Origin: Chrysomallon squamiferum
Taxonomy: Eukaryota > Animalia > Mollusca
DNA: 64,000 nt
Reading direction: 5' to 3'
Assembly: GCA_012295275.1 (NCBI GenBank)
Contig: CM022670.1
Location: forward strand, 24,862,001-24,926,000
A model generated the notes under the pieces. It was not told where the DNA came from. It worked only from the letters and a program-made list of their open reading frames with translations, and searched no databases. Positions 16,688 through 57,500 of this stretch are shown here, one piece after another (the stretch's first letter is position 1; every line of letters starts with the position of its first letter). The translations under genes were made by a program, and so were the position numbers.

Positions 16688-16734
<47 letters not shown>

Positions 16735-17025: not shown

Positions 17026-17108
<83 letters not shown>

Positions 17109-17274
17109 TTTACGTAACTTGTTTCCAGATATATATAATGTCCACGTTTTCTATGTAATTCTTAAATTAATGAAAAGAAAGAAAACTGAGAAAGTTTTCT
17201 TATTCAGTGCTGCCCATTCTAATGTTATATCTCTTTTCTTTTTCTCATTTTACAGGACACAGTTAATGGAACAG
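16529..17274 (+). CDS. Hc1 signal peptide: exon 16529-16576 (MWSFLGLVTLVLIVLK) plus 19-nt micro-exon 17256-17274 (DTVNGT)
   Basis: Hydrophobic N-terminus after TATA; AAG|gtatgg phase 0; tttacag|GACACAGTTAATGGAACAG|gtaaat phase 1 joins FU-a in frame. Confidence 0.8.
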
Positions 17275-18530
17275 GTAAATAACAACTTAATTATTTACTG
17301 TGCGTGTTTCATGAAGATTAAAAATATCTTTTTTCTTTTGCGTTACTTTTATATCATGTCCGAAAAGATCATAATATTATATTGCTTGGAAAAAGAAAAT
17401 AAATATATATATTATTTTAGTCAGAGATTTTACATTTTATTTATTTATTTATTATTATTATTATTATTATTTTTTTTTTTTTTTTGACGTAGCTTTGATA
17501 CTGCATTGTTATAAGCAACCTTTATTGTAATATTTATTACCAAAAGTTATGCAGCTTCTGAAATAAATGAATTAGACAATATCTCTTACCTGAAAGCCCA
17601 GATATAGAAAATATTTCTTTTAAAAAAGAAGGCTTCAAATTTTCAAACTTCGTCAATTATGAATTGTTGATTTGGTGATTTGGAATAATAAATACCGACT
17701 GAACAATAAATGTCTTGGGTCTAAATTCAAATAATTATAAACATATACATTATTTTGAATTCCAGGTACTCTTGTACGAAAAAATGTTGACGAATTAACG
17801 GATTCTGAAATACTCGAACTACAAATTGCTTTGGACAAGTTGGAAGCGGATGATGGTGACAATGGCTATCAGAAGATCGCTGGCTACCACGGCGCACCCA
17901 ACATGTGCACTGGGAAAAAGGGACAACCGGAATCGTGTTGCATTCATGGAATGCCCACATTTCCACAGTGGCATCGACTTTTCGTGGTGCAGATGGAACG
18001 AGCACTGGAAATGAAAGGATCATCAATCGGCATTCCGTTCTGGGACTGGACGAAGCCGATGAAGAATTTACCCAGCCTCGCAGATAATCCTATTTTCATG
18101 GATTCCCAGGGGGGTAAGGCCAAGACAAACGCTTGGCATCATGCCGAGGTCAAGCACGCAAATACGTACACGGCACGCGCAGTGGACAAACGTCTCTTTG
18201 AGCAGGTATCAGCAGGTGGACACACTCATCTGTACAATACCGTCCTGGACGCTTTGGAAGAAGATGATTACTGCAAATTTGAAGTCCAGTTTGAGGTTGC
18301 CCACAATACTATCCACTACCTCACAGGGGGGCGATATAAGTAAGTAGTTTGCGGTATATTCCTTCGCAAGAATATTTTATACTTATATCTCTGTGGTCAT
18401 GAATGTATATCTCTGTATTTATCTCTGTGATGGGATTATGTTTGTAAATGTATGTATTTCTGTATGTGACAGTATGTATATATTAGTGCGTGCACGTGTG
18501 TGTGTGCTTTTATATATTATTTGAGTGATG

Positions 18531-18570
<40 letters not shown>

Positions 18571-20846: not shown

Positions 20847-20914
<68 letters not shown>

Positions 20915-26019: not shown

Positions 26020-26062
<43 letters not shown>

Positions 26063-28438: not shown

Positions 28439-28484
<46 letters not shown>

Positions 28485-29938
28485 ACAGGGGACGACTTCA
28501 GATGGAAGCATTCTCCAAACACCGTACGAAAAGACTTAGATTCTCTAACTGAGAGAGACATTCAGAGTCTGACAGCTGCTCTACGTGATCTAGAGAACGA
28601 CAAGGGACCTGATGGTTTTGCTACCATCGCTTCTTTCCACGGCATGCCTCTGTTGTGTCCAGATCCCCAGAATCCGACAATGGCTTGCTGCCACCATGGA
28701 ATGGCAACATTCCCACACTGGCACAGACTTTACGTTCTGCACTTTGAGGAAGCTTTGAGAAGACACGGTAGCAGTGTAGCGGTTCCATACTGGGACTGGA
28801 CGAAACCCGTCACAGTTCTGCCGAAATTATTCACCGAACCACGTTACTACGATGTCTGGAGAAATGAGGTTGTTCTAAATCCCTTTGCCAGAGGTTACAT
28901 CCCTTCTGAATCAACGCACACAGTGAGAGATGTTCAAGACATGCTCTTCGAACTTTCCATAGACAAAAAGCACTCTGTTCTCTATGACTATGCTCTGTAT
29001 GCCTTGGAACAGGAAGATTTCTGCGATTTTGAAGTACAGTTTGAGGTCGTGCACAACTGGATTCATTATCTTGTTGGTGGAAGACAGACATATGCCCTTT
29101 CGTCTCTTCACTGGACGTCCTACGATCCTTTGTTCTTTTCTCATCACGCCTTCGTCGACAAAATCTGGGCTATTTGGCAAGAACTGCAGAAGAAGCGAAA
29201 CAAACCGCATGACAGAGCCGAATGCGCACTCAATCTCATGAGTACACCTATGAAACCTTTCAACTTTGATTTGAATACCAACAGCCATACAAAATCACAT
29301 GCAGTACCAAACACTGTTTTCGACTATACAGATCTGGGCTACTCCTACGATAATCTGGACCTTGCTGGAAATACCATTGACGAAATAAAAGCTACAATCG
29401 ATAGCAACAAACGCAGAAACAGAGTGTTCGCCGGATTCCTTCTACATGGTATCGGAACCTCTGCCGATGTGAAATTCCAAATCTGCAAAACGTCTGTTGA
29501 CTGCTACAAAGGTGGAGTGATATTTATCTTGGGCGGTTCCAAGGAGATGCCGTGGGCTTTTGACAGGTTATTCGAACTGGAAATCACACAAGCTCTCAAG
29601 GATGCTGGAATAGAACCTGAAGATGTCTTTGACGCACATGAGCCATTTTTCTTGAAGGTTGAAGTAACACACGTCGACGGAACGATGCTTCCGCCATCAG
29701 TGCTGCCTAAACCCACCATTATCTACAAACCTGCTGTTGGTAAGAATAATAGTCAAACTCCGATAAAACGTCGCAATAAATGTAAATCGGATATTTGTAG
29801 TGAAGACTGGATGCTGATTCCTCCGCCGTCGCCAAGACCGCCTCCGCCTTTCCCTCTGTCTTTTGATAGCGAGGATGATTAATGAACACGTAACAGTAGT
29901 TCAGCTGAGATCTTTTAATTAGGATTATTGTTACTTTA

Positions 29939-29999
<61 letters not shown>

Positions 30000-31720
30000 G
30001 TGTATAGTCGAGAGGAAGTATGTGACTTTATGTTTAATTTATAGGCATCTGCAAGCGCGCGAGGAGATCATCGTTTATTAACTGAATACTCATTAATCTT
30101 GCCGGTGGAAGAACAGTATATACTAAATACTTCTGTTCGTTCTGATCATATGCAATTATTCCTTCAGGGCATTGTAAAAATAATGTAAATAAACTTCTAA
30201 AACAAATGAAAACACGCACTGTGTTTCCAGCGTTTTCCTCGTTAATTATTATTATTGTTATTATTTCTATTATTATTATAACAAGTTTATTTTTTATATT
30301 CAACGAAATATTAACATTTTCACCATGAAGGTCATTCAGCAAGCTCATTAGAGTTATCTCCCATTAACGATTTAATAAAATCACATGATGAAACTGTAAT
30401 GATTCATACATTTAACACATTAACTGGCGAAAGAAGTATTAAAAATAAAAAAAGAACTATAATACTAAGGAACAAACACACTGGCTAATTTGTAAAATAA
30501 AATAAAATATAATATAATAAAAACACATATAGATAGAGATAAACAGACAGATATAATAAAATAACAATAAATTAAAATGAAAATAATTTAAAAGAAAAAG
30601 TATATTAGGTGTTCTGGTTTTGTTTCTAGGATCTGATGGCAGCGAAGTATCACATCATCATAGTGGTTTTGGTGTTAGAAAGAACGTCAACGATCTCACA
30701 CCATCTGAAACGGAAAGTCTTCGCAAAGCAATGGCCGCGGTAAAAGCGGATTCTGGACCAAACGGATTCCAAGCAATCGCCGCTTATCACGGAAGTCCAC
30801 CAATGTGTGAGCTCGAAGATGGAAAGAAATATTCCTGCTGTTTCCATGGTAAATAACATTATTTTGATTCTAAGATTTTGTAATATTTTCCTCCTGCTTT
30901 TCTTCTAAAATTAGTTTAACACATTTGTAAGAAAAGATAACGGACCTTAGTAAGTTAAATTCTCCGCAGTTCGTAAATTTATATATTCATAATTATGTTT
31001 TGAACCAAAACTTTTAAAACATATAATACAACATGAAAATTTATATTTTAAATAGGCAATTCATTTTATTTTTATATTCCATATAGTAAAATAAATGTTT
31101 AATAATTATGCCTTAATATTTACGACACACTTATTTTTAGTATATACTGGTATTAGTTACCTACTGAAAAATTACTGACCAAATTACTCTACTGACATAA
31201 TATATCTTTTTATATATTACTTGCTTCATTATCCTTTGTCAAGGTATGGCTACTTTCCCTCACTGGCACAGACTGTACGTTAAACAGATGGAAGATGCCC
31301 TGGTAGCAAATGGTGCCACTGTCGGTATTCCGTACTGGGACTGGACAGATGCTTTCACCAGCATGCCATCATTCGCTACACAGTCGGAAGATAATTCATG
31401 GCATGACGTAAGTTATTGTGCCCTTTTTCTTTCTTTCTTTCTATTTTTTAGTTATTTTATTTTTTCTGTAGTAAAGGGAGTTAACTCTGTTTTCTTTCCT
31501 TGTTTTATTTCCTTTGTATTTTCGACCCTTGACATTTACGGATGGTTATTGTCTTTGGAATTTGTATAGTTCGTTGATTTGATTGTTAAGAATACTTCAT
31601 TTTATTTTTTTTTTATTTCATCTTTTTCCTTTCTAGTTAATTTTTATTAATATTTAATTTTATTTTATTTTATTTTATTTTATTTAGTTATTTATAAATT
31701 TATTTATCCATGGCATGTAA

Positions 31721-31785
<65 letters not shown>

Positions 31786-34700
31786 TATTCATATTCACAG
31801 ACACACACATATACATACACATACACCAACTGTACTTACGTTATTATTTATTTTACCTATTTATTTACTTATTAATTAATTAATTAATTGATGTAGTTTT
31901 GTTTATTTATTTATTTTATTTTTAATTTCAGGCCAAAATTATAATTCATATAACCTTATTTTGTGGATTGAAATGATACGTAAGACAGCAGTTTCTGAAA
32001 TATAAAAAATAATGACATTTGAAATTTTAGGATTAAAAATGTTTTTATGTCATTGCGAAAATATAGTTAGAAAATCTTTTTATTTATTATTTCAAAATTT
32101 ATAATTATTATTATTTTTATTTATTATTATTTGTTTTGTTTTTTCCACATCAGGCAAAAATTGAATATCTGAATAAAGTGACTACACGTGATCCCAGACC
32201 ACAGCTTTTCAACGACCCAGAGAAAGGAGAAGAATCATTCTTCTATCGTCAAATTCTTCTTGCTCTTGAGCAGACTGACTTCTGCACATTCGAAGTCCAG
32301 TTTGAAATAGCGCACAACGCTATTCATTCCTGGACAGGAGGACACACCCAGTATGGTATGTCCACACTCGACTTCACGTCATACGATCCTCTGTTCTATC
32401 TCCACCATTCCAATGTGGACAGAATCTGGGCCATCTGGCAAGCGCTGCAGCAGTACCGAGGTCTGCCTTATGACAAAGCTTTCTGCGATATTCAGGAAAT
32501 GAAAGAACCAATGAAGCCCTTCAGTGATGCCATCAATCCAAATCCACTCACAAGATCCAACTCTCGTCCCATTGACGTTTTCAACTACGGCAGACTCAAT
32601 TACCAGTACGATAATCTCAAATTCCATGACTTGTCTATCCCTCAGTTAGAGAAACTTCTGCATGAGCACGCCGAGGAAGACCGAATGTTTGCAAGTTTCC
32701 TGCTGTCTGGAATAAAGCTTAGCGTTGATGTAGAGTTTGATATATGCATCAATCACGGAAAGACATGCAAATTTGCCGGAACCTTTGCAATTCTTGGCGG
32801 ACCTTACGAAATGCCATGGGCCTATGATCGACTATTCCGATACGATGTGACAAAAGTGATGAAAGTGATGGGTCTTAGATACGACTCAGATCTTGACTTC
32901 AAAGTACGAGTTATTGGTATTGATGGTAAACAGCTGGATTCTCATCTGATCCATACACCAACTTTGGATTTCATTCCAGGAACAGGCATGTGTAATTTTG
33001 AAATAACACAAATTTTAACTTGGTAGAATAAACAAACAACTCCAAATGTTGTCTTTTCTTATAGTGATTATTTGTGATAAAATATGTATATTATTAGCAA
33101 CGAAACTTGAATGATCTACATTTCTTTGTTTTAAATATATTAAAAGCTTTTAAGAGAATTAAACAGACAAAACAATTTACTATATAATGTTCTTAACATA
33201 GAAACAAATTCCTTTATAACTGAATTAAAACCCAAGTTTTAAAATATTTGTTAATGTTCTGCTTAACTTTATTTTCTGGCAGTGAATGCTTTATGTAAAT
33301 TTACCGCATTGCTAATATTATTAACTTATTTCAGGGCATGGACATAAGACTGCAGTCAAAGGAACACCAGCGTATCCTTCAGACAAACTGATAAGAAAAG
33401 AAATCAGCACTCTCTCTCTTGATGAGGCCAATGAAATAAAAAATGCTTTGTTCAAACTTCAAAGTGATGATGGAAAGAACGGATTCGAAGCTATCGCCGG
33501 CTTCCATGGCGTTCCATACACCTGCCCTGAACATGGAGATGACAAATTTGCATGTTGTACTCATGGGATGGCCGTTTTCCCACACTGGCACAGACTACAC
33601 ACAATTCAATTTGAAAGAGCTCTTGTAGAGAAAGGTTCATCACTAGGTGTCCCATACTGGGATTGGACGAAACCAATCAAGGGCATTCCAGCTTTCTTTG
33701 CCGACAGCAGCCACAACAATCCATTCTACAAATACCACATTAAATCTGTTAACCATGACACTGAACGAGAAATTAGTGAAACATTCTTCAAACAACCACA
33801 AATTGGACACCATGACTATCTCTATTATCTGGCTTTGAGTGCACTCGAAGAAGACAATTTCTGCGATTTCGAAGTGCAGTATGAGATTGTGCATAATGCC
33901 GTTCATGCATGGCTTGGAGGAACGAAAGAGCATTCCATGTCAACTCTTGAATATGCTGCTTTTGATCCAGTATTTATGATTCACCATTCCAGCATTGATC
34001 GTATTTGGATCATTTGGCAAGAATTGCAAAAGCTAAGGAAGAAACCATTCAGTTCTGCAAAATGTGTGGGACGCATGTTAGAAGAGCCTCTCCAGCCATT
34101 CAGCTACGAGACTGTCAACGGCGATGAATACACAAGGAAACTGTCTGACCCTAAGCATCTTTTTGACCAAGCTAGATTCGACTATTGGTACGACACCGTT
34201 GAACTGAATGGCCAGTCACTCGAAGAAGTCCATCATACTTTAGAAGACCTGCGACACAAGGACAGAATATTCGCTGCATTCGTTCTTTCAGGAATCGCTG
34301 CAACAGCTTCTGTGAAAATAATGCTGATAGGTGCTGACGGCCATGAAGAGGTTGCCGGGTCATTCATCATACTAGGCGGAGAGCGAGAAATGCCATGGGC
34401 TTACGAGAGACTGTACAAATACGACATAACTGACATCGCATCAAAACTGGGATTGAATGCTCATTCAACATTCAATTTCCATGTGGAGATAACCAAATAC
34501 GACGGAACCCCAATGGATGTCAAATACCCAACTCCACTGATCCTTCACCGCCCAGCCAATGTTCAGAAAGACACCCTCATCATTCCAGTCGGTTCCAATG
34601 TCCATTTGCCTGCCAAGGTGGTTGTCAAACAAGGCACCGACATCTTCTTCCATGTTGTGGACAACGCTGTCAGTAAATCGATGATTAATTTGAACAGTTA

Positions 34701-34860
34701 CACCACTTACGTCGACTGCGTTGTTCCACATTTCTCCTTCAACAGCTTTGAGCTGGAGACTGCATACTCTCTGAAGAGTGGCCAGTACTTCTTCTCAGCG
34801 CACACAAAGGAACTCTGCGAACAGAATGTCAGAATCCAGATCACCGTGGATAATGAATAA
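16529..34860 (+). CDS. Molluscan hemocyanin isoform 1 (Hc1), canonical 8 functional units a-h, about 3421 aa, 18 coding exons
   Basis: Eight repeats of the type-3 copper FU pattern HG..C...CCxHGMxxFPxWHR...PYWDW...C.FExQFExxHNxxH...DPxFxxHHxxxDxxW...EMPW. FUs are separated by phase-1 linker introns and FU-h has a C-terminal extension of about 100 aa. Summed exon length is 10266 nt, divisible by 3. Confidence 0.97.
17033..17101. repeat. (GA)n microsatellite in Hc1 intron 1
   Basis: Direct inspection. Confidence 0.95.
17766..20373 (+). CDS. Hc1 FU-a (exons 17766-18339, 19091-19345, 19967-20373)
   Basis: LVRKNVDEL...[22 protein letters not shown]...HNTIH...LHHSNVDR; GT-AG junctions in frame. 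Confidence 0.95.
20851..20912. repeat. (AT)n microsatellite just upstream of the Hc1 FU-b acceptor
   Basis: Direct inspection. Confidence 0.95.
20925..22653 (+). CDS. Hc1 FU-b (exons 20925-21181, 21476-22314, 22508-22653)
   Basis: DKSVDGYQAIAEYHGLPARCP..CCVHG...[19 protein letters not shown]...HNAIH; second FU in order. Confidence 0.95.
22761..24002 (+). CDS. Hc1 FU-c (single exon)
   Basis: FHGEPEWCPKPEAEHKFSCCVHG...[21 protein letters not shown]...SLRYTAFDP..HHSMVDR. Confidence 0.95.
24467..25958 (+). CDS. Hc1 FU-d (exons 24467-25301, 25552-25958)
   Basis: [18 protein letters not shown]...CCHHG...YYNSRQQRFDPNPFF...HNALH. Confidence 0.95.
26210..27914 (+). CDS. Hc1 FU-e (exons 26210-27216, 27677-27914)
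   Basis: [28 protein letters not shown]...HNGVH...PFSFGSPYNLN. Confidence 0.95.
28489..29739 (+). CDS. Hc1 FU-f (single exon)
   Basis: VRKDLDSLTERDIQSL...FHGMPLLCPDP..CCHHG...NPFARGYIP...HNWIH..GGRQTYALSSLH. Confidence 0.95.
30630..32985 (+). CDS. Hc1 FU-g (exons 30630-30848, 31244-31407, 32154-32985)
   Basis: [22 protein letters not shown]|[18 protein letters not shown]...[22 protein letters not shown]...[10 protein letters not shown]. Confidence 0.95.
31722..31780. repeat. (CA)n microsatellite in an Hc1 FU-g intron
   Basis: Direct inspection. Confidence 0.95.
33335..34860 (+). CDS. Hc1 FU-h with C-terminal cupredoxin-like extension (single coding exon, stop 34858-34860)
   Basis: [31 protein letters not shown]...HNAVH...plus tail LPAKVVVKQGT...LCEQNVRIQITVDNE*. 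Confidence 0.95.
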
Positions 34861-41396: not shown

Positions 41397-42485
41397 ATGT
41401 GGTCTTTAGCAGTCTTGCTTTTCTTGGGCAGTGCCTGCCACGTGAGTAAATTATTTATTTATTTATTTATTTATTTGTTTATTTATTTATTTGATTATTT
41501 ATTTATTTGATTATTTATTTATTAAGAAATGACAATAATCAATTAACGTAAGATAATATTCAATTGTTATGCTGAGACAATACTTAGTTCTAATTGTTTG
41601 GAATTAATGATATAAGAATTTAACTTTTTTTTTTTATTCATCTTACATTTGCAGTACTCTTAATCTATTTCATAATCAGGATATATTATAAGTTATTTAT
41701 AAAAAATAATAATATTAATAATAATTAAAAATATATAAACAGAATAAAACACATACTGTAACAAAAATTAAATAAGTAAGTAAATTAACAAACAGTCCAA
41801 GAAACAAACGAATAAATAATGATAAGAAAAAAGAAAAAGACCTAAACTTAAAAACAACCAGATAAAAAACATTCAAAATAAAAAATAATACATATTAACT
41901 TATACAATACAATATTAACTTATTAAAAACAACCAGATAAAAAACATTCAAAATCAAAAACAATACATATTAACTTATACAATACTGCATAAAAATTAGA
42001 TATTATTAATAACTGTTTTGATATATTTTAAGTTTAAAAATCGATTTTGTGAATATAAATTATAAAAAAAGAAGAAGAAAAAATAAATAAAAACAATTTG
42101 TATTAAACCATATACTTCATCTAGAAATAATACTATCATACTATCCTAATCCGAAAATTATTCGAATGCGTTTTGCAGCTATTTTAACTGAGAAAAGAAA
42201 GTCACTGAAAGAGTATTTATAATAATAATTTCAACTAAATTAAACGGGATATAATTCTTTTTTTGTTTCTAAATAAATAAATAAAATTACAGTAAAATAT
42301 TCCTACAATTTTCACTTTTCCTAATGTATTAAAATATACATGGAAATAAAAGTTACACGATGTTACTATTTCAAGGTGTAGATTTGACAGAATGACAAAT
42401 TTTCTTAATATATTTTGTACATTTTCAAGTCACTATTTTATTTATTTTTCAACTTTATTTATTTATTTATTTATTTCTTCTTCTT

Positions 42486-42516: not shown

Positions 42517-42573
42517 TTATTATTATTATTGTTCTGTTTTTAACTTTTCAGCTGACTGTTGGAATCAGACATG
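41397..42573 (+). CDS. Hc2 signal peptide: exon 41397-41441 ([15 protein letters not shown]) plus 22-nt micro-exon 42552-42573 (LTVGIRH)
   Basis: CAC|gtgagt phase 0; ttttcag|CTGACTGTTGGAATCAGACATG|gtaagc phase 1; same layout and same 67-nt total as Hc1. Confidence 0.8.
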
Positions 42574-43182
42574 GTAAGCATATATTTTAAATTAATTTAT
42601 ATCATAATGTTATGTAAGATAAAACGGTAAAGGCAATTATAAATACATACATTTAATTAAAACCACTTGACCACAGAAATACCTAATTCACCATTAATTA
42701 AATGAAATAAACAAATAAAAAAACAAACAAATAAATAAATAAAAACCTTTTTCTTCACTTCTTTCTCCTCCCTTCTTTACGTAACGCCAGTAACTAAATT
42801 AATGTCGTCATTTCTCCATTTCTGTATGCAGAAAATTTAGTAAGAAAAAATGTGGAGAAGCTAAGTACGACGGAAATTCTGAACTTGCAAGTTGCTCTGG
42901 ATAAACTCGAACATGAAAGCGGTCCTTCTGGCTACCAGGTAATAGCAGGCTACCACGGTGCGCCACCTAGCTGCGAAGTCAAGGGCCAGAAGACAGCTTG
43001 CTGCATCCACGGCATGCCAACGTTCCCAGCTTGGCATCGACTGTACGTGGTGCAGATGGAGCGTGCTCTAGCTCGTCAAGGTAAGATATTTTGATAGAAA
43101 TGTTTTTGTCTTAAATCTCCGAACTTAAGCATATTTTGTTTTGGATACAAGAGGTTGTATTAAGCGTAATTGTAAATGAACT

Positions 43183-43218
<36 letters not shown>

Positions 43219-43543
43219 GAAATAAATAGAAAAAAAAGAGAAAGAAATTAGAAAATTAAATTGTCAGTTATTCCTGTTTCTAACTAAATCAAAATGAGTT
43301 AACAATGACAATGGCTGTCTAATCTTGTGTTTCAATTATTGACGTCATATCGTCGTTCGGAATACCTCGTTTATTTTCGACATTTTCAATGTTCAGGTGG
43401 TAGTGGTGATGGCCGTAATAGTGTTCTTTTGAACTAGTTATACAAAGTTTTAAGTTATTTTTAGTCATCTTATCTTTGAAGTTCTGGATATAGTCACACA
43501 CACACACACACGGACACAAACGTACATACATATGTATATATAT

Positions 43544-43626
<83 letters not shown>

Positions 43627-43862
43627 TATATATATACATACATATATACCATAAATAATAATTTAAATAATAATAATAATAATAATAATAATAATTTATG
43701 TCATTAAAAAAAGAAGAAAAAAAAAAAAAGAGAGATGAAAGTTAAAATCTGAGAGAAAAATATCAACAACCACCATGAAATTAATACCAAATATGCCATA
43801 CTAAATCAAAAACCACCCAAATACAATATACTGAATAAATAAATAAATAAAAAATAAACAAA

Positions 43863-43894
<32 letters not shown>

Positions 43895-44553
43895 GATTAA
43901 GAATTTAATTTTTTTTTTTAAATTATACATACATACATATATGCGAAATTTCAGCGAATTAATATTACTAACAAAAAAATAAGAAAATACCACTTTCGTT
44001 ACAGGGATGAACACTGGTATGCCATACTGGGACTATACAAGGCCGCTGTCACACCTTCCGAGCCTTGTACAGAATCCCGTCTTCATTGACCCCCAGGGTG
44101 GCAAGGCCAAGACAAATTCCTGGTACGAGGGAGCTATTGATCACGCCAACACGCACACAGCACGTGCAGTGGACGATCGCCTGTTTGAGACGGTGGGGTA
44201 TGGTCAGCACACAGAACTGTTTGACCATGTCCTTGATGCTCTTGAACAAGACGAGTATTGCCAGTTTGAGATACAGTTAGAAGTCAGTCACAACTCCATT
44301 CACCTTTTGACTGGTGGCCGATACTGGTAATTTTTGAATATTCTTAAAAAAATATTTGTGTTAAAGTCTGTTCATAATAATTATCGCTTCCAGTGTTAAT
44401 ATTGTATAATTTTATTAATTTATGTTTTTGATTATTCAGAAACAATTTAATAAAAGAATGCATATCAGTACAATACCATAACTATACTATTTGTATAATA
44501 ATATTAATTACCATAAGTCTATGAAGAAACACAATGAGCTAAAAAAGAAAGAA

Positions 44554-44610
<57 letters not shown>

Positions 44611-47600
44611 TACAAATAAAATAAATAAATAAATAAATAAATACATAAATAAAATAATAATATTAAAAAAACAGAAGTAGAAAAAATACATTTAAAGTCT
44701 GCATCGCGATTTGATTTCAGCACCTACCGCTGTAAAGGCTAGTTAGTATCTTTGCCTTTGCAGTATCTTTGTATTAATTTCAGCCAAATATAACTTTTTC
44801 TATAAACATTGTTACCACAGTAATAGTTATGAAGCAAATTTAACGCAAAAACTGAAACATATGCGATCTTTTTTTCTTGTTCCTTTTAGGTATTCTATGT
44901 CATCTCTGGAATATACGTCATACGACCCGTTGTTCTTCCTTTACCATTCGAATGTAGATCGTATCTTCGCTATCTGGCAGGAGCTGCAGAAAGCCAGAGG
45001 CAAGCCGTGGGACAGTACAAACTGTGGTATCCATATGTTCAAAAACCTGGAACCATTCAACAGGCCAGAGAACACTGATCCTCTAACGAAAGCGCACTCC
45101 ACAGGTGCAGCTACATTTGACTACCACCAGCTTGGCTACAGGTATACAGTACTCTTAACTCGTTAACTGAAAAATGAGGCATGTGTACATTATATTAATC
45201 TTTATTTTGGTTGGTATCATGTAACTTGCCAAAACTAAAAGACAATGGTGAACAGATAAAATTGTCCATATTAAATGCATATATATATATATATACAAGT
45301 GGGTGTATATATATATTTTTTTTTTAGTTTCGATGATCTGACGATAAACGATTTGAACAGCCAGCAATTGCTGAAAGTTCTGGAAGAACGAAAATCCGGT
45401 GATCGTCTCTTTGCCAGCTTCCAGCTACATGGAGTCGGTATATCGGCAAATGTTCACGTATATCTGTGTCTTCCATCTAAAGATGAGAACTCGCCTGATC
45501 ACTGCGAATTCTCTGGCGATTTCTTCATTCTAGGCGGTCCCACTGAGATGCCATGGACGTTTGCCTTCCCCTACTACTTTGACGTCACTAAAACGCTAAG
45601 CAAGTTCCCCGGAGCAGACGCTTCATTCGATTTCTACGCCAAAGCTGAAGTTACTGCTGTAAACGGCACCCTGCTTCCAGAGCACAGTCTGCCTGATCCA
45701 AAACTTGTTCGGAAACCAGGAACGAAAAGTCATGATGGTGAGTTTAAATGGTTAAATCGGAATAACTGTAATACATATACAGCGTTCACCAGAAGTAACA
45801 TCCAGCTTATGTTTCAGTTTCTTTTTCATCTCATTTTCAGAGATTTTATATCGAAAACAAACTTTAATACCTAAAAACATATATATGTATTTAAATTATA
45901 AATGTAAATAGATTAAACTGTAGATAGCTAATTCATGAAGTTGAGTATTGTCAAACTGAGTCTAATACCAGAAAGCTGAAACTGATTTTATTTAACACTG
46001 AAAAAACTTACTAGTGTACGAAAACTGTTTTTACATATACATTTTTTTTGTCGTTCATTTTATAACAATGAAACAGTTGTGTCCTCAGAAACCGATTCGC
46101 TTCTGCAAACGGCAATAAAGTGCAAAAAGAATTAATTTTTTTGGTAACTTTTTTTTTTTTTTGATAATGATTACTGGTGAATGTAACACTGTAATAATAC
46201 AAACTGCTCTTTCAGAATCCGTTCATGAAGGTAAGGATCACAAAATCCGCAAAAATATTGAAACGTTGACACTGCAGGAACAGTACGATTTGAGGAAAGC
46301 TTTAACAGCTGTACAAAAAGATAAAAGTTCAGGCGGATTCCAGACAATTGCATCTTATCACGGACAACCAATTTGGTGTCCTACTCCAGATGCTAAGAAG
46401 AAATATGCTTGTTGTGTTCATGGCATGGCTACATTTCCACACTGGCATCGTCTTATAACAGTACAGTTTGAGAACGCTCTTAGACGTCACGGTTACACGG
46501 GGGCTGTTCCATACTGGGATTGGACCAAACCTATTTCTGCTCTCCCAGCTCTCGCAAAGGATGCCAAGTTCAAGGATCCATTCTCTGGCGAAACTGTAGA
46601 TAACTCTTGGTATAAGGCCTATATTGATGAAGCCAAGACAGAGACCGCTCGTGCAGTCGGCGACAAACTTTTCGCTGCACCAAAGAGTGGTCATCGATTC
46701 ACGGATACCGCTGAGCAAGTACTTTTGGCATTAGAACAGGACAATTTCTGTGACTTTGAGGTACAATATGAAATAATCCATAATATGATCCATGCTGAGG
46801 TCGGCGGTCCAGAAAAGTATTCCATGGGATCCCTGCGGTACACAGCATACGATCCTATATTTTTCCTACATCATTCCATGACTGACAAACTCTGGGCAAT
46901 CTGGCAAGCTTTGCAGAAAGAGAGAGGAAAGCCGTACAATTCAGCTGATTGTGCCGCAAAAGAAATGCGCAAACCACTACAACCTTTTGGGCAGGTCAGT
47001 GTCAATCCTGATCACGTTACTAGGGATCATGCAGTTCCGATTAGCGCTTTCGATTATAAAGATAGTTTTGGTTACGAATACGACGATCTTCAGTTCAATG
47101 GAATGTCTATAAACCAGCTTGAAAAAGAAATCAACCAGATGCGTGCCAAAAAGAGGGTATTTGCAGGATTTTATCTACACGGCATCAAGCATACTGCCAT
47201 GGTCAGCCTGAAAGTTTGTCGCGGTTCTAGTGAATATGATTGTAAACACGCCAGCGAATTCTACATATTTGGAGATGAATACGAAATGCCATGGAAATAT
47301 GACAGAATTTACAAGCATGATATCACCGAAGCACTGGCTAAGTTGGAGCTGCAACACGATGACGACTTCCATATCAAATATTCAATCGTTACCTTAGATG
47401 GCAAAAAACTAGGAAATAATCTTTTTGGCAAGCCAGTAATTATTCGTGACAAAGGCACAGGTTTGTTTAGTACTGAGCGCATATTGAAAAACAATAATAA
47501 TAAATAAATTAACAGTCAGTTTATATATTAGACAATTTCATGGTCGTAACTAGACTGTTTTTGAAATGAGACAAAAATATTTAATCACCGAGCGGAGCGG

Positions 47601-50600
47601 GGCAAAACAATTTGGTTAAGGGATTTGGATATCAGTGGATATCGTTTCTATTTGAAGAGCGATTTATACTTTATATGCTTTAAATAAAATCTTTGTATAA
47701 ATATTTTTTTTAATAATAATAAAATAAAATAAAATAAAAATGTTCGTCAATTTCAATATGAGGCCTCATTTCTGTTAATGTAGTTACGGCCATGGACTTT
47801 TAATATGTGGTGTAAAAAATTAAGCGATTTTGAAATTCAAACGATGAATGTGTCTGATTATTTATTAATGCATCCTTTGTTATTATTACAAGAGAACAAC
47901 AACAAACAAAAATATATATATATATATGATTAAAACGATCCTGCTTTATCTCTGTACTTTCATAAGTATTTCCAATGTCAAACAATTTATGCTTCACAAC
48001 AACTGTGGTGATTATATGTAACTGATTCTTATATTTATTTTATTTTATTATTTTTTTTAATTTCTGTAGCTGAAGAAGAGGATGACGACCATCTTGTAGT
48101 CCGCAAAGATGTTAGCAAATTAACACCAAAAGAACAACATGACCTGAGACATGCTCTTCAAGCCTTCAAAGCAGACAAAACAACTGGTGGATTTCAGGCA
48201 ATTGCAGCTTATCACGGACAACCCCAATATTGTCCGACCCCAGAAGCCAAATCGAAATTCGCATGCTGCGTGCACGGGATGGCTACATTCCCTCACTGGC
48301 ACAGACTTATAACAGTGCAGTTTGAGAACGGACTTAGAAGGCACGGCTATTCAGGAGCTGTACCATACTGGGACTGGACCCAACCGCACACAAATGTTCC
48401 ATTTCTGACGAGGGACCGTTCATATACAAACCCCTATTCCGGAGAATTAACTGAGAATTCATGGTACAATGGTCACATCGATGAAGCCAACACTGTTACT
48501 ACTCGATCAGTCCATCATCATGAAGAAGGAGAAGAAAGTCACAACACATATCTTCTAGAACAGACATTATTGGCCTTGGAACAGGAAGATTTCTGTGACT
48601 TTGAAATACAGTTTGAAGTTCTTCACAACGCAATTCATTTATTGATTGGCGGGAAAGATATCCACTCCATGGCAAATCTGCGTTACACAGCCTACGATCC
48701 TATTTTCTACCTTCACCATTCCATGATTGACAAACTCTGGGCTATATGGCAGGCTGTGCAGAAGCATAGAGGAAAGCCATACAATTCAGCCAACTGTGCA
48801 CAAAGTGAAATGCAGACAGCACTACATCCATTTGATATGGCCGGTGTTAATCCAGATCCTGTCACACGGAAACACGCAATCCCAAACACTGTCTTCAACT
48901 ACAAAAATGAATTTCATTACAAATATGACAATCTTGAATTTAATGGTATGTCCATTCCAGAATTGTCAAAAGAATTGTATCGCAGACGCGCAAGAGGCAG
49001 AGAATTTGCAGGCTTTATGTTGCACGGAATAGGCAAGAGTGCTAAAGTGAAGTTTGACATTTGTCCTGGCGTTGGACACACTAACTGCAAACATGCCGGC
49101 GAATTCTACATTCTTGGAGACAAGTATGAAATGCCTTGGAGCTATGAAAGATATTACAAATACGAAATAACCGATGCGTTGGCTGACATGAATATTCACC
49201 ATTACGATGCATATCATTTGGTTTATACCGTTTACGATAGAGAAGGACATAAAATAGGAAACAGTCAGTTCGGCACACCCGTTGTTATTCATGTCAGCGG
49301 TGAAGGTTTGTATTTATATGTGTATGTGTGTGTACATACATACATACATACATACATATACACATATACACACATACTAACATACATATATACATACACA
49401 GACACATTATTCATGTCAGCGGTGAAGGTTTGTATTTATATGTGTATGTGTGTGTACATACATACATACATACATACATATACACATATACACACATACT
49501 AACATACATATATACATACACAGACACATATACATAAACACATAAACACCCGCACAAATTCATATTAGTCATCACCTTGCACGAATTCTCTCAGAATAAT
49601 AAAATTATAATAAAACTGATAAATTATCGGGCGACATAATGAATAGCACTGATGAACAATTTTGGTTTTAACGTCAACACAAAAAGGCAAATTATTGACT
49701 TTAGCTTACACAAACATTTATTCTAATACAATACACGATTTTATATGTACGGATATATAAAACACATGCATAAATTCTGGGACCAGAATTCGAAATTTTA
49801 ATAGCTTACTTCAACAATTTTCAGTGTTTTGACAAGTAATTTAAAATTATATATTATAAATGTTACATTATCATATACACAACATCTCTCAGTTGTATAT
49901 TATTTCTGGTATATAACCCCAATACCAGACACATTATATATAAAGTATCAAATTACTTTTTAAATTCTACAAATCTAAATGGGTTAATTAAAGGCTGGAC
50001 TATTAAGTTAGATCTTAGAAAATTATTTTAGTTTTACTGTAGTGATATACACAGTCATGTTCTAAATGCGTTATAGAAAGAGATATATGTATCACCTGAA
50101 TGAAAAACACAGTAATTTTATTTTTCAGATTTTACTTTTGAAGATCAGCTAATAGTAAGAAAAAGTGTTGATTCGTTATCACCAAAAGAAACAAATCAGT
50201 TGAGAAAAGCATTGGCTGCACTAAAAGAAGACAAGACTAACTTTGGATTCCAGACAATGGCTGCTTATCATGGACAGCCCATCTGGTGCCCCAAACCAAC
50301 CGCTGAAAAGAAGTATGCTTGCTGTGTTCACGGCATGCCTACCTTCCCTCACTGGCACAGGCTGATAACTGTACAGTTTGAGAATGGCCTCAAACGACAC
50401 GGCTATACAGGAGCTGTGCCGTACTGGGACTGGACCGTGCCTCATAATCAGCTTCCAGATCTTGCCAGAGACCCAAAGTATACTGATCCAGTTACTGGAG
50501 ACACATTAGAAAACTCTTGGTATAAAGGTCACATAGATGAAGCTAATGCCGAGACAGTTCGTTCGATAGATGACGCACTGTTTCAAAAACCTTCTGGCCG

Positions 50601-51528
50601 TTATACACGTTTAGCTCAGGAAGTGCTACTTGCTCTCGAGCAGGATGATTTCTGCGACTTCGAAGTCCACTTCGAGATTGTCCACAACATGGTGCATGCA
50701 CTTCTTGGCGGACCAGAAAAGTTCTCCATGAGTTCCCTAAGATACACAGCCTACGATCCTATTTTCTTTCTTCACCATTCTATGACTGACAAAATATGGG
50801 CAATTTGGCAAGCTCTGCAGAAACAGAGAGGAAAGGCCTATAATTCCGCAGATTGTGCCCTTTCTGAAATGCAAAAGAAACTTCAGCCATTTGGACTTTC
50901 CAGAGAGGTCAATCCGGATCCTCTGACCAGAGGCCATGCTGTTCCTTTGACCGTCTTTGACTATAAAAACAGTTTTGGTTATAAATACGACAATCTGGAA
51001 TTTAATGGTCTTTCTGTTGAACAGCTTTCTAAAGAAATTGATCGCATACGATCGAAAGAGAGGTTTTTTGCTGGATTTAAGCTGCATGGAATTAAATGCA
51101 CCGCGCAAGTACATTACCATATTTGTGCAGGAACTAGTGAAATTAACTGCAAACATGGCGGGGAATTCTACATTTTTGGAGACGAATATGAAATGCCATG
51201 GACATACAGTAGAGTGTACAAACAAGACATTACTGACGTAGTTCACGAAATGGGTTTTACCTCAGAAGACCCTTTCCACGTCGTCTACACTATTTACGCA
51301 CTGGATGGCACTGAATTAGGACATGATCAGTTTGGCGTCCCGGAAATTATTCACGACATGGGTACAGGTAGGCTGTAGACCAGATTAACTGTCTGACTGT
51401 AATAATTCAGATTTCTGAAAATCAAACAACAATTACAATTTCAGTTTCAGCAATTTCTGCTTCTTTTATTTTTATTTAATTTATAAAATATATGCTTGCG
51501 TATGGATGTGTGAATCTGTGTATTTATC

Positions 51529-51595: not shown

Positions 51596-54500
51596 CAATT
51601 ACACTAGCCATTTAAACGGGAGTAATGATATAGCGCATATAAGAATTTTACAATGTAAGCAGGAAAAACCGTTATTTATATACGAGTCGGAAATCATAAA
51701 CCAAAAAGAAATACATTTTTCCCGGTATCTTGAAGACTTGTATTAACAAGGACACATATTTACGCACTGATATATATTCTGATTCTACTCTTTTCCTTCA
51801 TTTTTCTGATTATTGATTCCTTTCTATTTTCTTTTTCTTTTTCCTTTATTCAAATTTTTTTTTGAGCTGTACACTACAAAAATACTATCACTGCTTTCAG
51901 CTATGTCACGATTTTATCACCGATCGGAACTAGTGACTCGTAAGGACATTGCACAGTTAACAGAAAATGAAGTCTACGAACTGCGGGAAGCCATGGACCG
52001 CTGGCAGCACGACCTGTCAGTTGTCGGGTATCAGGCGATCTCCGAGTACCACGGCGAGCCTGCACGATGTCCTCGACCTGACGCAGCTGTCCGCTGGGCA
52101 TGCTGTCACCACGGAATGCCCACCTTCCCTCACTGGCACAGAGTGTTCATGGCTCAGGTTAGAGTACCGTCCGATGTGATGATACTTGCTAGCAATATAT
52201 GAGATTTCGATCAGAGAGTAAACAAATAAATTAAAGTAAATCAATAAGTGAGTAAAGAAACAAAGACTGAATAAGGAAAGAGGCGCAGATATGTGCAAGA
52301 CCTAACCAATAAGCTTGAAAAAGGTAAGTCGTAATATAAATGAATGTATATTTGTTTTTTTTTACAGATGGAGGACGAACTGGTGGACCGAGATTCGCCT
52401 ATTGGTGTTCCATACTGGGACTGGTCTCTTCCAATGACTGAATTACCAAAGATCGTTACTGATGAGACCTACACAACAGCTAACGGAGAAGTAAAGAAAA
52501 ATCCATTTTACAAAGTTCACATAGAACATGTGGATAAAGACACTACAAGAAATGTAGTTACAGATCTTTTGTTTGAAAAGCCCAAGTTCGGTGATCATAC
52601 ATACCTCTTCGATGCTATGATTTTTGCATTCGAGCAAGAAGACTTCTGTGACTTTGAAGTTCAGTTTGAAGTAATCCACAATGCTGTGCATCTGTGGGTT
52701 GGTGGAGACGGATTATATTCTATGGCTCACCTGCACTACACATCGTATGATCCAATCTTCTACCTGCACCACTCGAATGTTGATCGTTTATGGGTCATCT
52801 GGCAAGAACTGCAGAAAATGCGTGGAAAGCCATATGTCGCAAACTGCGCCAAGAGCGAGATGTCTAAGAGAATGACACCATTTTCCTTTAAACCACCTCT
52901 AAACAACAATGTCAAAACTCGGGCACACTCTCTACCAAATACTCTGTATGATTACGAGCACCTTGGCTACCAATACGACGCTTTGCAATTTGGTGGCATG
53001 AACATTCATGATTTAGAAGCTTACATCCAGCTGCAGAAGAAGAAAGATCGTACATTCGCAGGATTCCAACTTGGCGGTATTAAAACGTCTGCTAATGTAG
53101 ATGTCTTCGTGAATGGAGTAAAAGCAGGCACATTCTCCATCTTGGGAGGTGAAAAGGAAATGCCATGGTCATTTGATAGGCCTTACATGTTTGAAATCAC
53201 TAACGCACTGGTCGAACTTGGTTTAAAACCTACTGATGACTATTCTGTAACAATAACGATCAAAGAATACAACGGAAATGATCTGGATTCAAATCTGATA
53301 CCTGAACCCCTTATCATCTTTAAACCCGGCATTGGTAAGTATAACGTTTACTACATCTTTTCATTTATCACCTTAATAAGCTTAAAGGTTTCGATTAATT
53401 TTGGCCATTTGAGAAAAACCATATTTCTAGGTGGTGAACAAAACTATCTAGATACTTGTAAAATGTGATTAATTTATTTTTTTAGTAAATTAGATAAATA
53501 TTTAAATGATAAATGAACTTGTAATATTTCCAAATAGAATATTCAGTTTTCGAGAACAACAACAGCTACAGCAGCAGCAGCAACAGCAACAACAGCAACA
53601 ATAATAATAATAGTAAACATCATACAATTGTCATAATAATTATATATATCTTTAAAAATTACTTTTTTTAATGTCATGTTATTGAAGATGTTGTGTCTAC
53701 TTTTAGTAGATAATACGTTAGTATCTATTTTTGTTTTCAGTTGATGTGCACGAAGAAGAAAACCACTCTGAAACAAGAAAAAATGTTGATATGCTATCCC
53801 CGCAAGAGGTATATCAACTCAGACGTGCTTTGGCAAGTCTGCAGGAAGACAAAACTCACGCTGGATTCCAAACAATTGCAGCTTATCACGGACAGCCTTA
53901 TTGGTGCCCTTCACCAGACGCCGAGAAAAAGTATGCTTGCTGTATTCACGGAATGGCAGTCTTCCCTCACTGGCACAGACTCTTAACGGTGCAGTTTGAA
54001 AATGGCCTCAGACGACATGGATACACAGGTGCAGTGCCTTACTGGGATTGGAGCAGACCTCTTACTGAATTGCCAGCCCTTGTCAAAGATCCGACCTACA
54101 AAGATCCAATTACCGGAGATGAAAAACCTAATTCTTGGTTTAAGGCTCATATTGACGAGGCCGGTGTTGATACAGAACGATCTATCGTCGACAGACTCTT
54201 TGAAAAGCCAGCAATGAACCACTATACCAACGTTGCACAGCAAATGCTTCTGGCTCTGGAACAAGACAATTTCTGCGATTTCGAAGTTCAATATGAGGTA
54301 GCCCATAATCTAATTCACGCTCTGGTTGGTGGAGATAAAGTTCATTCCATGGGATCCCTGCGATACACCGCTTATGATCCTATATTCTTCTTGCACCATT
54401 CGATGACAGATAAAGTCTGGGCTATCTGGCAAGCTCTGCAAAGGTACAGAGGAAAACCGTATAATATTGCAAATTGCGCTTTATCGTCAATGTGGAAACC

Positions 54501-57500
54501 GCTTCAACCGTTTGGTCTGTCGAGTTACATCAATCCTGACCAGGTTACAAGAGACCATTCATTACCAGCGATGTCTTTCGACTACAAACATCACTTGGGC
54601 TACGACTATGATAACCTAGATTTCAATGGGCTTTCCGTGCAGCAACTGGAAAGAGAATTCTACCGCAGACGATTGAAGGAGAGGGTATTTGCAGGCTTTT
54701 TATTGTACGGAATAAAGAATAGTGCCATGATAAAATTCAAAGTCTGCGCAGGAGCCAATTGCAAAGATGGTGGTGAATTTTATCTGCTGGGAGACGAATA
54801 TGAAATGCCATGGAAGTATGATAGAACGTTCAAATACGAAATCACCGATCTTCTTCACGAGATGAATCTCCGTCCTGGAGATGACTATCATATCACCTAC
54901 ACAATCTACGCGTTGGATGGTACAAATCTAGGTAGCGATAAATACGGCACGCCTACAATAATTTACGACAGAGGCGCAGGTATGTTAACAAACTTATTAA
55001 ACAAGTTGAATACAGTTTGTAATATAACTAATTTTATCAATAATATATATATACACAGAAGCTGCGCAAATTATGTTTTAAAGGCTATTAAAACGTTCAT
55101 TTCCGTGTATTATTATTATTAATTTAAATATTAGATCAACAATATTAATTCTAATTAAACAACATCATAATCTTTCGATTCTATTTTTTACAGCGCTTTT
55201 CGAAGATGAATACACTCACCCTATAAATATAGCCACCCACGTTAGAAAAGATATTTACAGCCTTAATGATGGCGAAATTGAGAGTCTTAGAGCGGCCTTC
55301 AATGTTCTTCATCGAGACGGCACCTATGAGAACATTGCCAAAACCCATGGACATCCAGGTCTCTGTGATGGCTTAGCTTGCTGTGTACATGGGATGCCAA
55401 CATTCCCACACTGGCACAGAGTTTATGTTGTACAGGTTGCAATCGCTCTCTTACAACAGGGTTCAGCTACTCCTGTACCCTACTGGGATTGGACCAGCCC
55501 CTTGACAGAAATTCCAAAACTTTTATCCGATGCGACATTCTATAATTCAAGAGAACAAAGATACGACCCGAATCCATTCTTTAGTGGAAAAATCAGTGAT
55601 ATAAATCAAGTCACATCTCGTGCACCCAAACCAGAACTCTTTCATTCAAACTATTTTTACGAGAATACCTTGTTAGCATTTGAGCAGGATAATTTCTGTG
55701 ATTTTGAAATTCAGTTCGAAGTGACCCATAACGCATTCCATCTTTGGCTTGGTGGTCGAGACACTTATTCAATGTCGACGTTGGACTTTTCCGCCTTTGA
55801 TCCAGCTTTCTTTGTATACCATGCCAACACCGACAGACTGTGGGCAATTTGGCAGGAATTGCAGCGATATCGAAAGAAACCATACAATAGTGCTGATTGT
55901 GCCATCAATCTGATGCACGTTCCTTTAAGACCATTTAATGGTCCGGACAATAAGAATCCAATCACCAGGAAAGCAAGCACGCCATTTGACGTGTTTGATT
56001 ATCAGAACAACCTTAAGTACACGTTCGATACTTTGATATTCAACAATCTGACCATCCCAGACCTGGAAGATATCCTAATTGATAGAAAGAAACACGACAG
56101 AGTATTTGTGGGAGTCATGTTGCATGGCGTGAAATCATCCGCACAAGTAACTATTTACGTGTGCGTCCCAGTCGGCACAGGAAAAAAGAATTGTAACAAC
56201 AAAGCTGGAGTCTTCTGTCTTCTTGGAGGTCCTTTAGAAATGCCTTTTACTTTTGATCGACTCTTCAAGTATGACATCACTGATACCCTTCTTCGTCTAG
56301 GAATGGACCTGCAAAGTCATGCTTTTGATATCAAGCTTCATGTTGAAACTCATGATGGAAGAGTACTACCTTCAGATACATTTGGCGAGCCAACCATAAT
56401 GTTTGTTCCTGGTACAGGTAAAGACTGCTGTTATATTTGTCAGTTTTATGATATGTGTGGGCTGTTTATATGTTTGTATGTTAATATTTATATAGTACCT
56501 TCCACTAATATTAATAAACTATCATTTTTTTGTCCTGAAACAGGTGAATAATTATTTTATTACTGACTATGTTCTACTTTCACATTTTAAAGAAAAATAT
56601 TCTGATCTTGAAGAATTCTTCGAAGCAGTATTAGTTTTATAATACCGTAATATTTGTACAATCACTAATGCAGTCTCATAAATTCTGAACATAATACAGT
56701 TTGTATATATGTTTGTTGTCGTATATTTATGTATATAAATAATAATGTTACCTAAATTCGAATAAGTTATTTCGTTATAACTGAAATTTACTTAATTGAC
56801 TAACCTTTAATTTTAGAAACTCGACAGACTGATGATGGACGCAGAACTAAATATGCAGTTCGAAAGAACATTAATCATCTCAGTCCTAAAGAAACTCTTA
56901 GTCTCGTTAAAGCCTTGAGGTCAATGCAGGCTGACAGTTCTGCCGATGGATTCCAAAATATTGCTTCATTCCACGCGCTACCTCCACTGTGTCCAAGTCC
57001 AACTGCAGCTAAACGATATGCCTGTTGTGTCCATGGTATGGCAACTTTCCCTCAGTGGCATCGATTACACATGGTACAGTTCGGAGAATCTCTGATGAAA
57101 CATGGCACTCCACTCTGCGTTCCTTACTGGGTGTGGTCAAGACCTCAATCAGCTCTGCCAGAATTACTTACAAAAGATTCTTTTACCGATCCTGAAACGG
57201 GCGAAGAAATATCAAACCCATGGAAGGTAGCACACATTGATTTCGAAAATGCCGACACAACCAGGGATCTTATAACTAGTAAACTGTTCCCACCTGCAAA
57301 GGGAGGTTACAAAACATGGTACTACGATCAAGTAATGTATGCTTTGGAACAAGAAAACTTCTGTGATTTTGAGGTTCAGTTTGAAGTCATGCATAATGGT
57401 ATCCATTTGTGGATGGGTGGAAATAAAGAATATTCAATGAGTCATCTAAACTACACATCATACGATCCAGCTTTCTACGTACATCATTCTGAATGCGACA

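Follow-up and report, generated by a model that had tools for sequence, protein, structure and literature searches.

A predicted eleven-unit hemocyanin subunit with three maintained copies of its own functional unit c in the vent snail Chrysomallon squamiferum

The window analysed here, a stretch of 64,000 nucleotides of the Chrysomallon squamiferum genome (contig CM022670.1, forward strand), holds two head-to-tail molluscan hemocyanin genes, Hc1 and then Hc2. Hc1 encodes a canonical subunit with functional units (FUs) a to h. Hc2 was modelled from 41397 to 63479 as 19 exons, with GT-AG borders at every intron, zero internal stops and a product of 4637 aa whose precursor has a predicted mass of 533 kDa; its unit order is a-c*1-c*2-c*3-b-c-d-e-f-g-h, which makes eleven units. 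The three extra FU-c-type units, c*1, c*2 and c*3, had been recognised in a sequence-only reading of this DNA, and exon models, domain content and phylogeny now confirm them. Each is an uninterrupted exon bounded by AG and GT and comprises one Tyrosinase (PF00264) and one Haemocyan_bet_s (PF14830) domain of Pfam; together they sit between FU-a, which ends at 45737, and FU-b, which starts at 51901, with an intron of 478 bp between a and c*1. The units of Hc2 are separated by phase-1 linker introns, as expected of molluscan hemocyanin FUs, for which such introns are given as the rule in PMC8599328. The features concerned are the following.

16529..34860, + strand: Hc1, canonical a-h hemocyanin, 18 exons, 3421 aa, 390 kDa
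22761-24002, + strand: Hc1 FU-c, the in-genome outgroup for c*
41397..41441, + strand: Hc2 signal-peptide exon 1, ATG at 41397; in-frame join, stop-free to 63479
42552..42573, + strand: Hc2 signal-peptide exon 2
42832..45737, + strand: Hc2 FU-a, four exons (42832-43080, 44005-44326, 44890-45141, 45328-45737)
46216..47460, + strand: c*1, one phase 1-1 exon, 1245 nt, 414 aa, FU-c-derived, with a C-x7-C loop
47268-47270, + strand: Phe351 of c*1, at an otherwise invariant gate Leu position
48070..49305, + strand: c*2, one phase 1-1 exon, 1236 nt, 411 aa; the most divergent copy, dN/dS (omega) 0.18
49285..49529, no strand: exact 122-bp tandem duplication, spanning the 3' end of c*2 (~20 nt) together with the donor
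50129..51367, + strand: c*3, one phase 1-1 exon, 1239 nt, 412 aa, with a C-x7-C loop
51175-51177, + strand: Phe349 of c*3, at the gate Leu position
51901..53334, + strand: Hc2 FU-b, two exons (51901-52157, 52368-53334)
53741..54979, + strand: Hc2 FU-c in its normal place, the closest paralogue of c*1-3
55194-56417, + strand: Hc2 FU-d
56817-58067, + strand: Hc2 FU-e
58360-59607, + strand: Hc2 FU-f
59923-60141, 60574-60737 and 60926-61757, + strand: Hc2 FU-g
61987-63479, + strand: Hc2 FU-h, ending in the stop

Protein identity is 58-66% among c*1-3 and with Hc2 c, and fourfold-degenerate sites are 36-42% identical, so the copies are not an assembly duplication, as the sequence-only reading had argued from their divergence. 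All 19 units of the window keep the six copper-binding histidines, the thioether cysteine and the first two disulfides, and in c*1-3 three disulfide pairs are kept. In our own codon model (GY94 type, no among-site rate variation, 396 codons) omega is 0.11 for c*1, 0.18 for c*2, 0.11 for c*3 and 0.12-0.13 for Hc2 c, dS is about 1 on each c* tip, and omega = 1 on the c* tips is rejected with twice the log-likelihood difference at 249-279. Computing dN/dS on these branches had been proposed as a check, a value near 1 being expected of decay; the values of 0.11-0.18 give no sign of it, and the c* exons are under purifying selection and old. That the extra units are an assembly artefact or decaying pseudo-exons is scarcely credible: synonymous sites between the copies are saturated, stops and frameshifts are absent, omega is far below 1, and a published model described below has the same layout. 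The tandem repeat of 122 bp over the c*2 donor, exact in both copies, is either a recent duplication or the artefact of a contig join, but the duplicated piece holds the c*2 end on both sides, so that a join keeps c*2 and c*3 linked. Through the duplication c*2 also has a second, identical donor 122 nt downstream, which is out of frame if used.

An AlphaFold2 model of c*2, built from a 41-sequence alignment with a predicted local distance difference test score (pLDDT) of 94, agrees with the solved hemocyanin units 4bed, 6r83 and 3j32 at template-modelling scores of 0.94-0.95 and predicts a complete FU fold with a tyrosinase-type core and a beta-sandwich; an earlier fold from 5 sequences (pLDDT 57) was set aside. 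In place of the loop before the CuB helices c*2 carries a His/Glu-rich stretch (48500-48560), the sole low-confidence part of the model, and it has 31 histidines in total versus 20-21 in c, c*1 and c*3. The c* donors score 6.7-8.5 bits and the acceptors 5.7-8.0 bits, within the range of all 31 donors and 33 acceptors when each is left out in turn, and we infer that the c* exons are included in the mRNA. That they are instead alternative cassettes, the protein being mostly an 8-unit subunit with 9- to 11-unit forms at times, seems quite improbable. Each c* exon has a length divisible by 3 and is phase 1-1, two of the donors read GTTTGT and that of c*2 is duplicated, as would suit cassettes; however, every linker-bounded hemocyanin unit is phase 1-1, so the c* exons are not special in this, their splice scores are ordinary, their omega is about that of c (0.125 vs 0.133), which needs steady translation, and the published model Csqv2.0_587_54.25 has all eleven units.

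This model, named 'hemocyanin 2', is listed with 11 beta-sandwich and 11 tyrosinase domains in Supplementary Data 11 of PMC11871041. Compared by its listed domain coordinates only, it has domain starts within +1/-3 residues of our Hc2 model, 10 of 11 beta-sandwich lengths equal, a short b-like domain fifth and a long d-like domain seventh, and it lacks 4 of our residues where c*2 joins c*3; it could represent Hc2 itself or an orthologue. Its mean expression in the foot is 4146 transcripts per million (TPM), versus 5238 and 4221 for two neighbouring models (PMC11871041) that we read as pieces of the 8-unit gene, and its ratio to the first neighbour is 0.67-0.79 in all five tissues for which values are tabulated. 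SEQUEST scores are given for it in 2 of 5 shell and 3 of 6 scale samples (PMC11871041). What this shows is that the gene was annotated independently and is strongly expressed, and not that each exon is included: TPM and peptide scores are per gene and silent on the c* exons, and the model may come from the same species as the window, not necessarily from a second lineage, both of which count against taking it as proof of an eleven-unit protein. The two hemocyanin passages of PMC11871041 mention neither the 11-domain model nor a unit count, and 12 of the 13 supplementary files of PMC7142155 held no match.

The phylogeny places the origin of the extra units in Hc2's own FU-c. In a tree of 228 units (the 19 of the window and 209 from 26 reference proteins) each unit type forms a clade at 99.9-100, c*1-3 fall within the FU-c clade (support of 99.9 for c with c*), and c*1-3 group with Hc2 c at 99.6. 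With 27 references the same group has support of 99/97 and is sister to Hc1 c at 84/82. Among 20 fixed trees compared by the approximately unbiased (AU) test, under the LG model only, the three in which the c* trio branches off before this Hc1/Hc2 split, or lies outside it, are all rejected (AU 0.006, 0.002 and 0.015). The sequence-only reading had derived c* from Hc2's own FU-c after the Hc1/Hc2 split, and on this it was right, with one point to the contrary: a tree in which c*2 alone branches before the split is not rejected (AU 0.099).

The diagnostic residues tell the same story in part. Every motif listed in that reading is present in the alignment as described, but when polarised with 27 outside FU-c sequences several prove uninformative. 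HGQP (8 of 27 references, versus HGEP in 4 of 27), WDW and the D residues of IDEA and GD are either ancestral or widespread, and therefore mark changes in Hc1 and no link between c* and Hc2. Two states are truly derived and common to c*1-3 and Hc2 c: D-K after HHSM, where all 27 references have R, and the S in NSW, where all 27 have P. Altogether six derived states unite these four units, two of which, P130S and R224K, occur in no reference. Of the features thought private to c*, the C-x7-C loop is so, whereas NSW is found in Hc2 c too and RLITVQ in 4 of 27 references. The loop is x7 in c*1-3 and x4 in Hc1 c and Hc2 c; among the 18 of 26 reference FU-c loops that could be measured, x5 occurs in 16, x4 and x6 in one each, and x7 in none. 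This 3-residue insertion is the best character in favour of c* monophyly. Two further states, L80I and R303K, are common to c*1-3 only within the FU-c set of the window, and each is found in 5 of 27 references.

Within this clade the order of duplication is less sharply drawn. The best tree with 27 references is (c*2,(c,(c*1,c*3))), with c*1 and c*3 paired at 92/93; the pairing falls to only 60 in the 228-unit tree and is absent from five window-only analyses (two codon, two nucleotide, one protein), all of which favour (c*2,(c*1,(c,c*3))), and both facts weigh against it. The codon-level phylogeny that had been predicted, (((c*1,c*2,c*3),Hc2-c),Hc1-c), was thus not obtained. Holding c* together costs 0.46 log-likelihood units (AU 0.425), the three trees with monophyletic c* have AU values of 0.425, 0.165 and 0.058, and in the window-only analyses such trees are also unrejected (AU 0.08-0.43). 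The derived states are spread over the copies: two link c*1 and c*3 with c, one links c*2 and c*3 with c, and the six pairs among the four copies share two to five each. The earlier claim of one displaced copy that was then triplicated therefore stands halfway: monophyly is unrejected and favoured by the loop, but no best tree is monophyletic, and we put the monophyly of c* at about an even chance, with a slight lean towards it.

Sequences were simulated on ten taxa, with branch lengths fitted for each hypothesis. The observed best tree was recovered in 29 of 30 simulations run on itself. Data generated on (c,(c*2,(c*1,c*3))) returned it 4 times in 30 and 6 times in 60, data generated on ((c,c*2),(c*1,c*3)) 14 times in 60, and the two neighbour-by-neighbour orders 0 times in 30 and 0 times in 60. 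In tandem arrays the outer copies become sisters only through block duplication and loss. Since c*1 and c*3, which are not neighbours, tend to be sisters, a block of at least two exons was probably duplicated and part of it lost. The four c copies split in quick succession, and neighbour-by-neighbour triplication is the worst fit, block duplication with loss a better one. That a single displaced FU-c copy was triplicated by successive neighbour duplications is accordingly unlikely in our judgement: the loop insertion, L80I and R303K are common to c*1-3 only, and neither of its orders is rejected (AU 0.165 and 0.058), but no best tree has monophyletic c*, L80I and R303K are not confined to these copies, and its simulations gave the observed tree 0 times in 90, versus 10 in 90 and 14 in 60 for the alternatives.

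A history of two block duplications, each losing its first b, is a little easier to accept but still rather unlikely. Here a-b-c would have become a-p-b-q by loss of the first b, and p-b-q would then have doubled and lost its first b, so that c*1 and c*3 are copies of p and c*2 is the sister of the present c. The pairing of c*1 with c*3 is then explained without loss of a c copy, the corresponding tree, ((c,c*2),(c*1,c*3)), has AU 0.117 and gave the observed topology in its 14 of 60 simulations, and c*2 and c share Y201H, found in 0 of 27 references. Against this, it requires either two gains of the loop insertion or its precise loss in c, b would have had to vanish cleanly on two occasions, with no remnant of it found, and the fitted branch joining c and c*2 is only 0.008. 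Repeated recruitment from c is doubtful, if somewhat less so. Our tentative preference, held at somewhat less than even odds, is for one displaced copy followed by block duplication and loss. In this sequence of events a copy of the intronless phase 1-1 FU-c exon would have been placed between a and b soon after the Hc1/Hc2 duplication, and the c array would then have grown in quick succession, with at least one step probably a block duplication followed by loss.

No remnant of FU-b had been visible to the sequence-only reading, and the searches agree: tblastn with 73 queries gave no match better than E 0.013, and in a profile search of the five introns from a to c, 76-95 of 200 shuffles scored as high. 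Planted 120-nt pieces of b were recovered in 48 of 50 trials at 80% identity and 31 of 50 at 65%. With dS at about 1 per branch, survival of a b remnant is not expected, so its absence speaks neither for exon shuffling nor for b-c duplication; the introns having turned over, the two are indistinguishable. A weak c-like match in the c*1-c*2 intron (E 0.036; best profile score, on the opposite strand, reached by 10 of 200 shuffles) was put down to chance. Gene conversion among the copies was not detected, informative sites being unclustered (p 0.20-0.22) and the longest exact runs 14-25 nt. FU-a and the copies show some of each other's motifs, c*1 having an FU-a-like TARAV motif (46620-46670) and Hc2 FU-a the NSWY motif of c*; synonymous sites differ, so that this is either convergence or very old conversion.

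We consider it rather likely, on the whole, that Hc2 is intact and encodes a predicted 11-unit, 533-kDa subunit whose extra units are maintained copies of its own FU-c, likely looping into the lumen of the hemocyanin cylinder. In such an assembly FU-a, b and c would keep their wall slots in an otherwise normal a-f cylinder, and c*1-3 would, by analogy, loop from the a-b linker inward into the lumen. Each decamer would then hold 30 extra units together with 10 g and 10 h units, 50 in all, in its lumen, and would carry 110 oxygen sites instead of 80, a predicted rise in load of nearly 40%. The c* units would thus be supernumerary oxygen carriers, comparable to d* of squid and f1-f6 of cerithioid snails. 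In squid the insertion of d* leaves the wall unchanged, with d* inside, and in cerithioids the lumen of the mega-decamer holds 60 units (PMC6503924), more than the 50 needed here.

Conserved residues bear on this arrangement. Hc2 FU-a keeps 14 of 17 a-specific residues and FU-b 13 of 16 b-specific ones (16 and 14 in Hc1), and of 181 a-conserved columns 160 are kept in Hc2 FU-a and 162 in Hc1 FU-a. Hc2 c keeps 180 of 216 c-conserved columns, versus 173, 166 and 168 in c*1-3, and the difference has the same direction as in squid d* (158 vs 175 of 227) and f1-f6 (166-171 vs 193 of 211), though it is weaker. In FU-f one motif makes contact with FU-c (PMC4491423); its Asp is retained by c and c*1 but substituted in c*2 and c*3. 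Several observations pull the other way. The loss of c residues in c* is mild, the strict c-specific set being kept at 9, 7 and 9 versus 10 of 14; of 12 relative-rate tests only 4 reach significance, and in none of these is Hc1 c the outgroup; and the c* linkers are no longer than is normal, with 9-12 residues before the first conserved motif.

The alternative of a rebuilt wall, in which a c* unit takes the FU-a slot beside b and a-c*1-c*2 extend off the rim, or form an extra tier or outer knobs, is improbable. Short linkers around c* would suit it, c*1 and c*3 have 4 of 17 a-specific residues versus 1 of 17 in Hc1 c, and a, b and c face decamer-decamer interfaces (PMC10286996). Hc2 c too, however, has 3 of 17 a-specific residues, Hc2 FU-a keeps its own a-specific residues and a-conserved columns much like Hc1 a, and the wall is called indistinguishable across the molluscan hemocyanins studied (PMC6503924).

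A further difference concerns a leucine at the entrance of the active site, which 209 of the 209 reference units have, as does c*2; c*1, c*3, FU-h of Hc2 (residue 333) and the h orthologue P0065 carry Phe there instead. This gate Leu corresponds to Leu347 of Crepidula FU-a and lies 287 residues past the first copper His in octopus FU-g. We take it to be Leu2830 of octopus FU-g, the residue with the placeholder role. Leu is the molluscan placeholder residue according to PMC3658974, and a simulation study lists the gate Leu among the oxy-state tunnel-bottleneck residues (PMC12169132). The Phe of c*1, c*3 and Hc2 h is a variant and gives no ground to exclude these units as hemocyanin FUs; that c*1 and c*3 carry it where all 209 reference units have Leu is new here. 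As a hypothesis, the change may tune oxygen access or block phenol substrates, against which stands the judgement of PMC12169132 that a direct role of the Leu in oxygen import is unlikely. Either way c*1 and c*3 offer natural Leu-to-Phe variants of a residue that is otherwise fixed in those units.

How old is the expansion? In a tree built on six units (a, b, d, e, f and g), Hc1 pairs with Hc2 (Shimodaira-Hasegawa-like approximate likelihood ratio test 100) and the pair is sister to Haliotis/KLH (98.7), and Hc2 evolves faster than Hc1, at 0.45 versus 0.27 changes per site; changes at near-invariant sites are seen in Hc2 a, d, e, g and h, with all copper ligands kept. Hc2 f, b, g and h have orthologues in the single-exon proteins P0061, P0069, P0074 and P0065, in that order (69-73% identity, support 98-100), and Hc1 a has one in P0078. 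P0061 falls in a 90% cluster with a partial hemocyanin of the vent snail Gigantopelta aegis (XP_041347238.1), the nearest named Hc2 orthologue; a supplement lists five separate hemocyanin gene models for G. aegis, a listing that does not show their unit counts. Units c and c* are 0.65-0.97 apart, farther than Hc2 orthologues are from each other (0.40-0.52), so that the expansion is likely older than the divergence of these orthologues, and c* copies would be expected in Gigantopelta and its kin. Along the Hc2 side, the expansion goes back about 70% of the distance to the Hc1/Hc2 split. The Hc1 and Hc2 stems are similar in length to those of KLH1 and KLH2 in the six-unit tree, and the KLH1/KLH2 split is placed at about 340 Myr (PMC2881123); if the Hc1/Hc2 split is about as deep, the expansion would date to roughly 200-300 Myr ago, a crude estimate borrowed from a single calibration, and so need not have arisen at vents. 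Among 1.84 billion representatives searched no c*-like protein was found and C-x7-CKH occurred in 0 of 202 retained proteins, with the limit that 50% clusters could hide c* orthologues. In an incomplete search aimed at long proteins, MtH550 was the only relative of 3501-5000 aa among 642 candidates, and the ESM Atlas returned tyrosinases only. The only locus of a metagenome scan (L001:1-1056) is a frameshifted, Haliotis-like FU-c fragment, 78% identical to H. discus type 2; it is host DNA and unrelated to c*.

Around and within the two genes some further observations were made. Internal introns common to Hc1 and Hc2 are two in a, one in b and two in g, with extra ones in b, d and e of Hc1 and a single extra one in a of Hc2; identical intron positions are reported for lepetellid paralogues (PMC7931591). 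The sole non-GT donor of both genes belongs to a GC-AG intron at 32986, in the Hc1 g-h linker. A donor-like AAGGTAA lies a few bases 3' of the stop in both genes (34860-34870 and 63479-63490), with plausible acceptors further downstream, near 35294 in Hc1 and 63919 in Hc2, which suggests a common 3'-UTR intron. Upstream of Hc1 are the 3' exons of a DHHC palmitoyltransferase gene (about 1470-9840), one of which, 1862-1981, matches PF01529 at E 3e-8, with possible alternative short exons near 3852 and 6840; this gene can serve as a synteny marker to locate the locus in relatives.

Four molluscan hemocyanin subunit architectures are described in PMC6503924, and Hc2 can be set beside three of them. 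With the keyhole-limpet type 1 (KLH1/2, Haliotis) it shares all eight units in the order a-h, phase-1 linker introns and few internal introns, but type 1 has exactly eight units, whereas Hc2 has 11, three c-type extras lying between a and b, and 533 versus about 390 kDa; Hc1 and Hc2 moreover form their own clade (100), which makes their duplication separate from the sampled pair of KLH1-type and type 2. The squid type 4 (a-b-c-d-d*-e-f-g) likewise has a wall unit duplicated inside a-f, with the copy losing type-specific residues, and was as of 2019 the only type with an extra unit in the a-f segment (PMC6503924). Hc2 too has extra units in this wall segment, but there are three, they are copies of c rather than d* and lie two units upstream of their source, FU-h is kept, and the animal is a gastropod. 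The cerithioid mega-hemocyanin type 2 (MtH550, P0059; a-f and f1-f6) is similar in size, at ~550 kDa, has one unit type serially amplified and occurs beside a normal 400-kDa isoform; in Hc2 the extras derive from c, lie near the N-terminus and leave g and h in place, while MtH550 lacks both, six f-derived units replacing them. Type 2 is further marked by a filled lumen and by a tridecamer in which normal decamers flank the mega-decamer. The two lineages are unrelated, so the resemblance is convergent. The deviations reviewed in the available text of PMC8599328, mega-hemocyanin and a muricid FU-g insert, include no 11-unit form. Titles and abstract openings of open-access texts, among the matches listed (the best 20 of the larger searches), held no 11-unit or c-amplified hemocyanin, though supplements could mention a unit count. 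Hc2 is thus likely a fifth molluscan hemocyanin architecture, reached by an independent route to a mega-sized subunit.

Taken as a whole, the locus holds a real, old and selected three-unit expansion; the sequence-only reading was right about its source and its kept function, while a single founder and simple triplication are unproven. The oxygen carriers of vent snails have been named as still to be examined (PMC4470333). Tentatively, and at somewhat less than even odds, we propose that neomphalid vent snails have a second, independent mega-hemocyanin of a fifth quaternary type: an abundant 11-unit subunit, made at about 1:1 with the normal one, in which c-derived units would fill the cylinder N-terminally with g and h kept, giving 110 sites per decamer, two of the added sites retuned by Phe, and which would supply host and symbionts in oxygen-poor water. 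Hc2 is a clear case of a phase 1-1 exon shuffled out of register, and it bears directly on whether the a-f wall is truly invariant and on how far the lumen packs with g and h in place.

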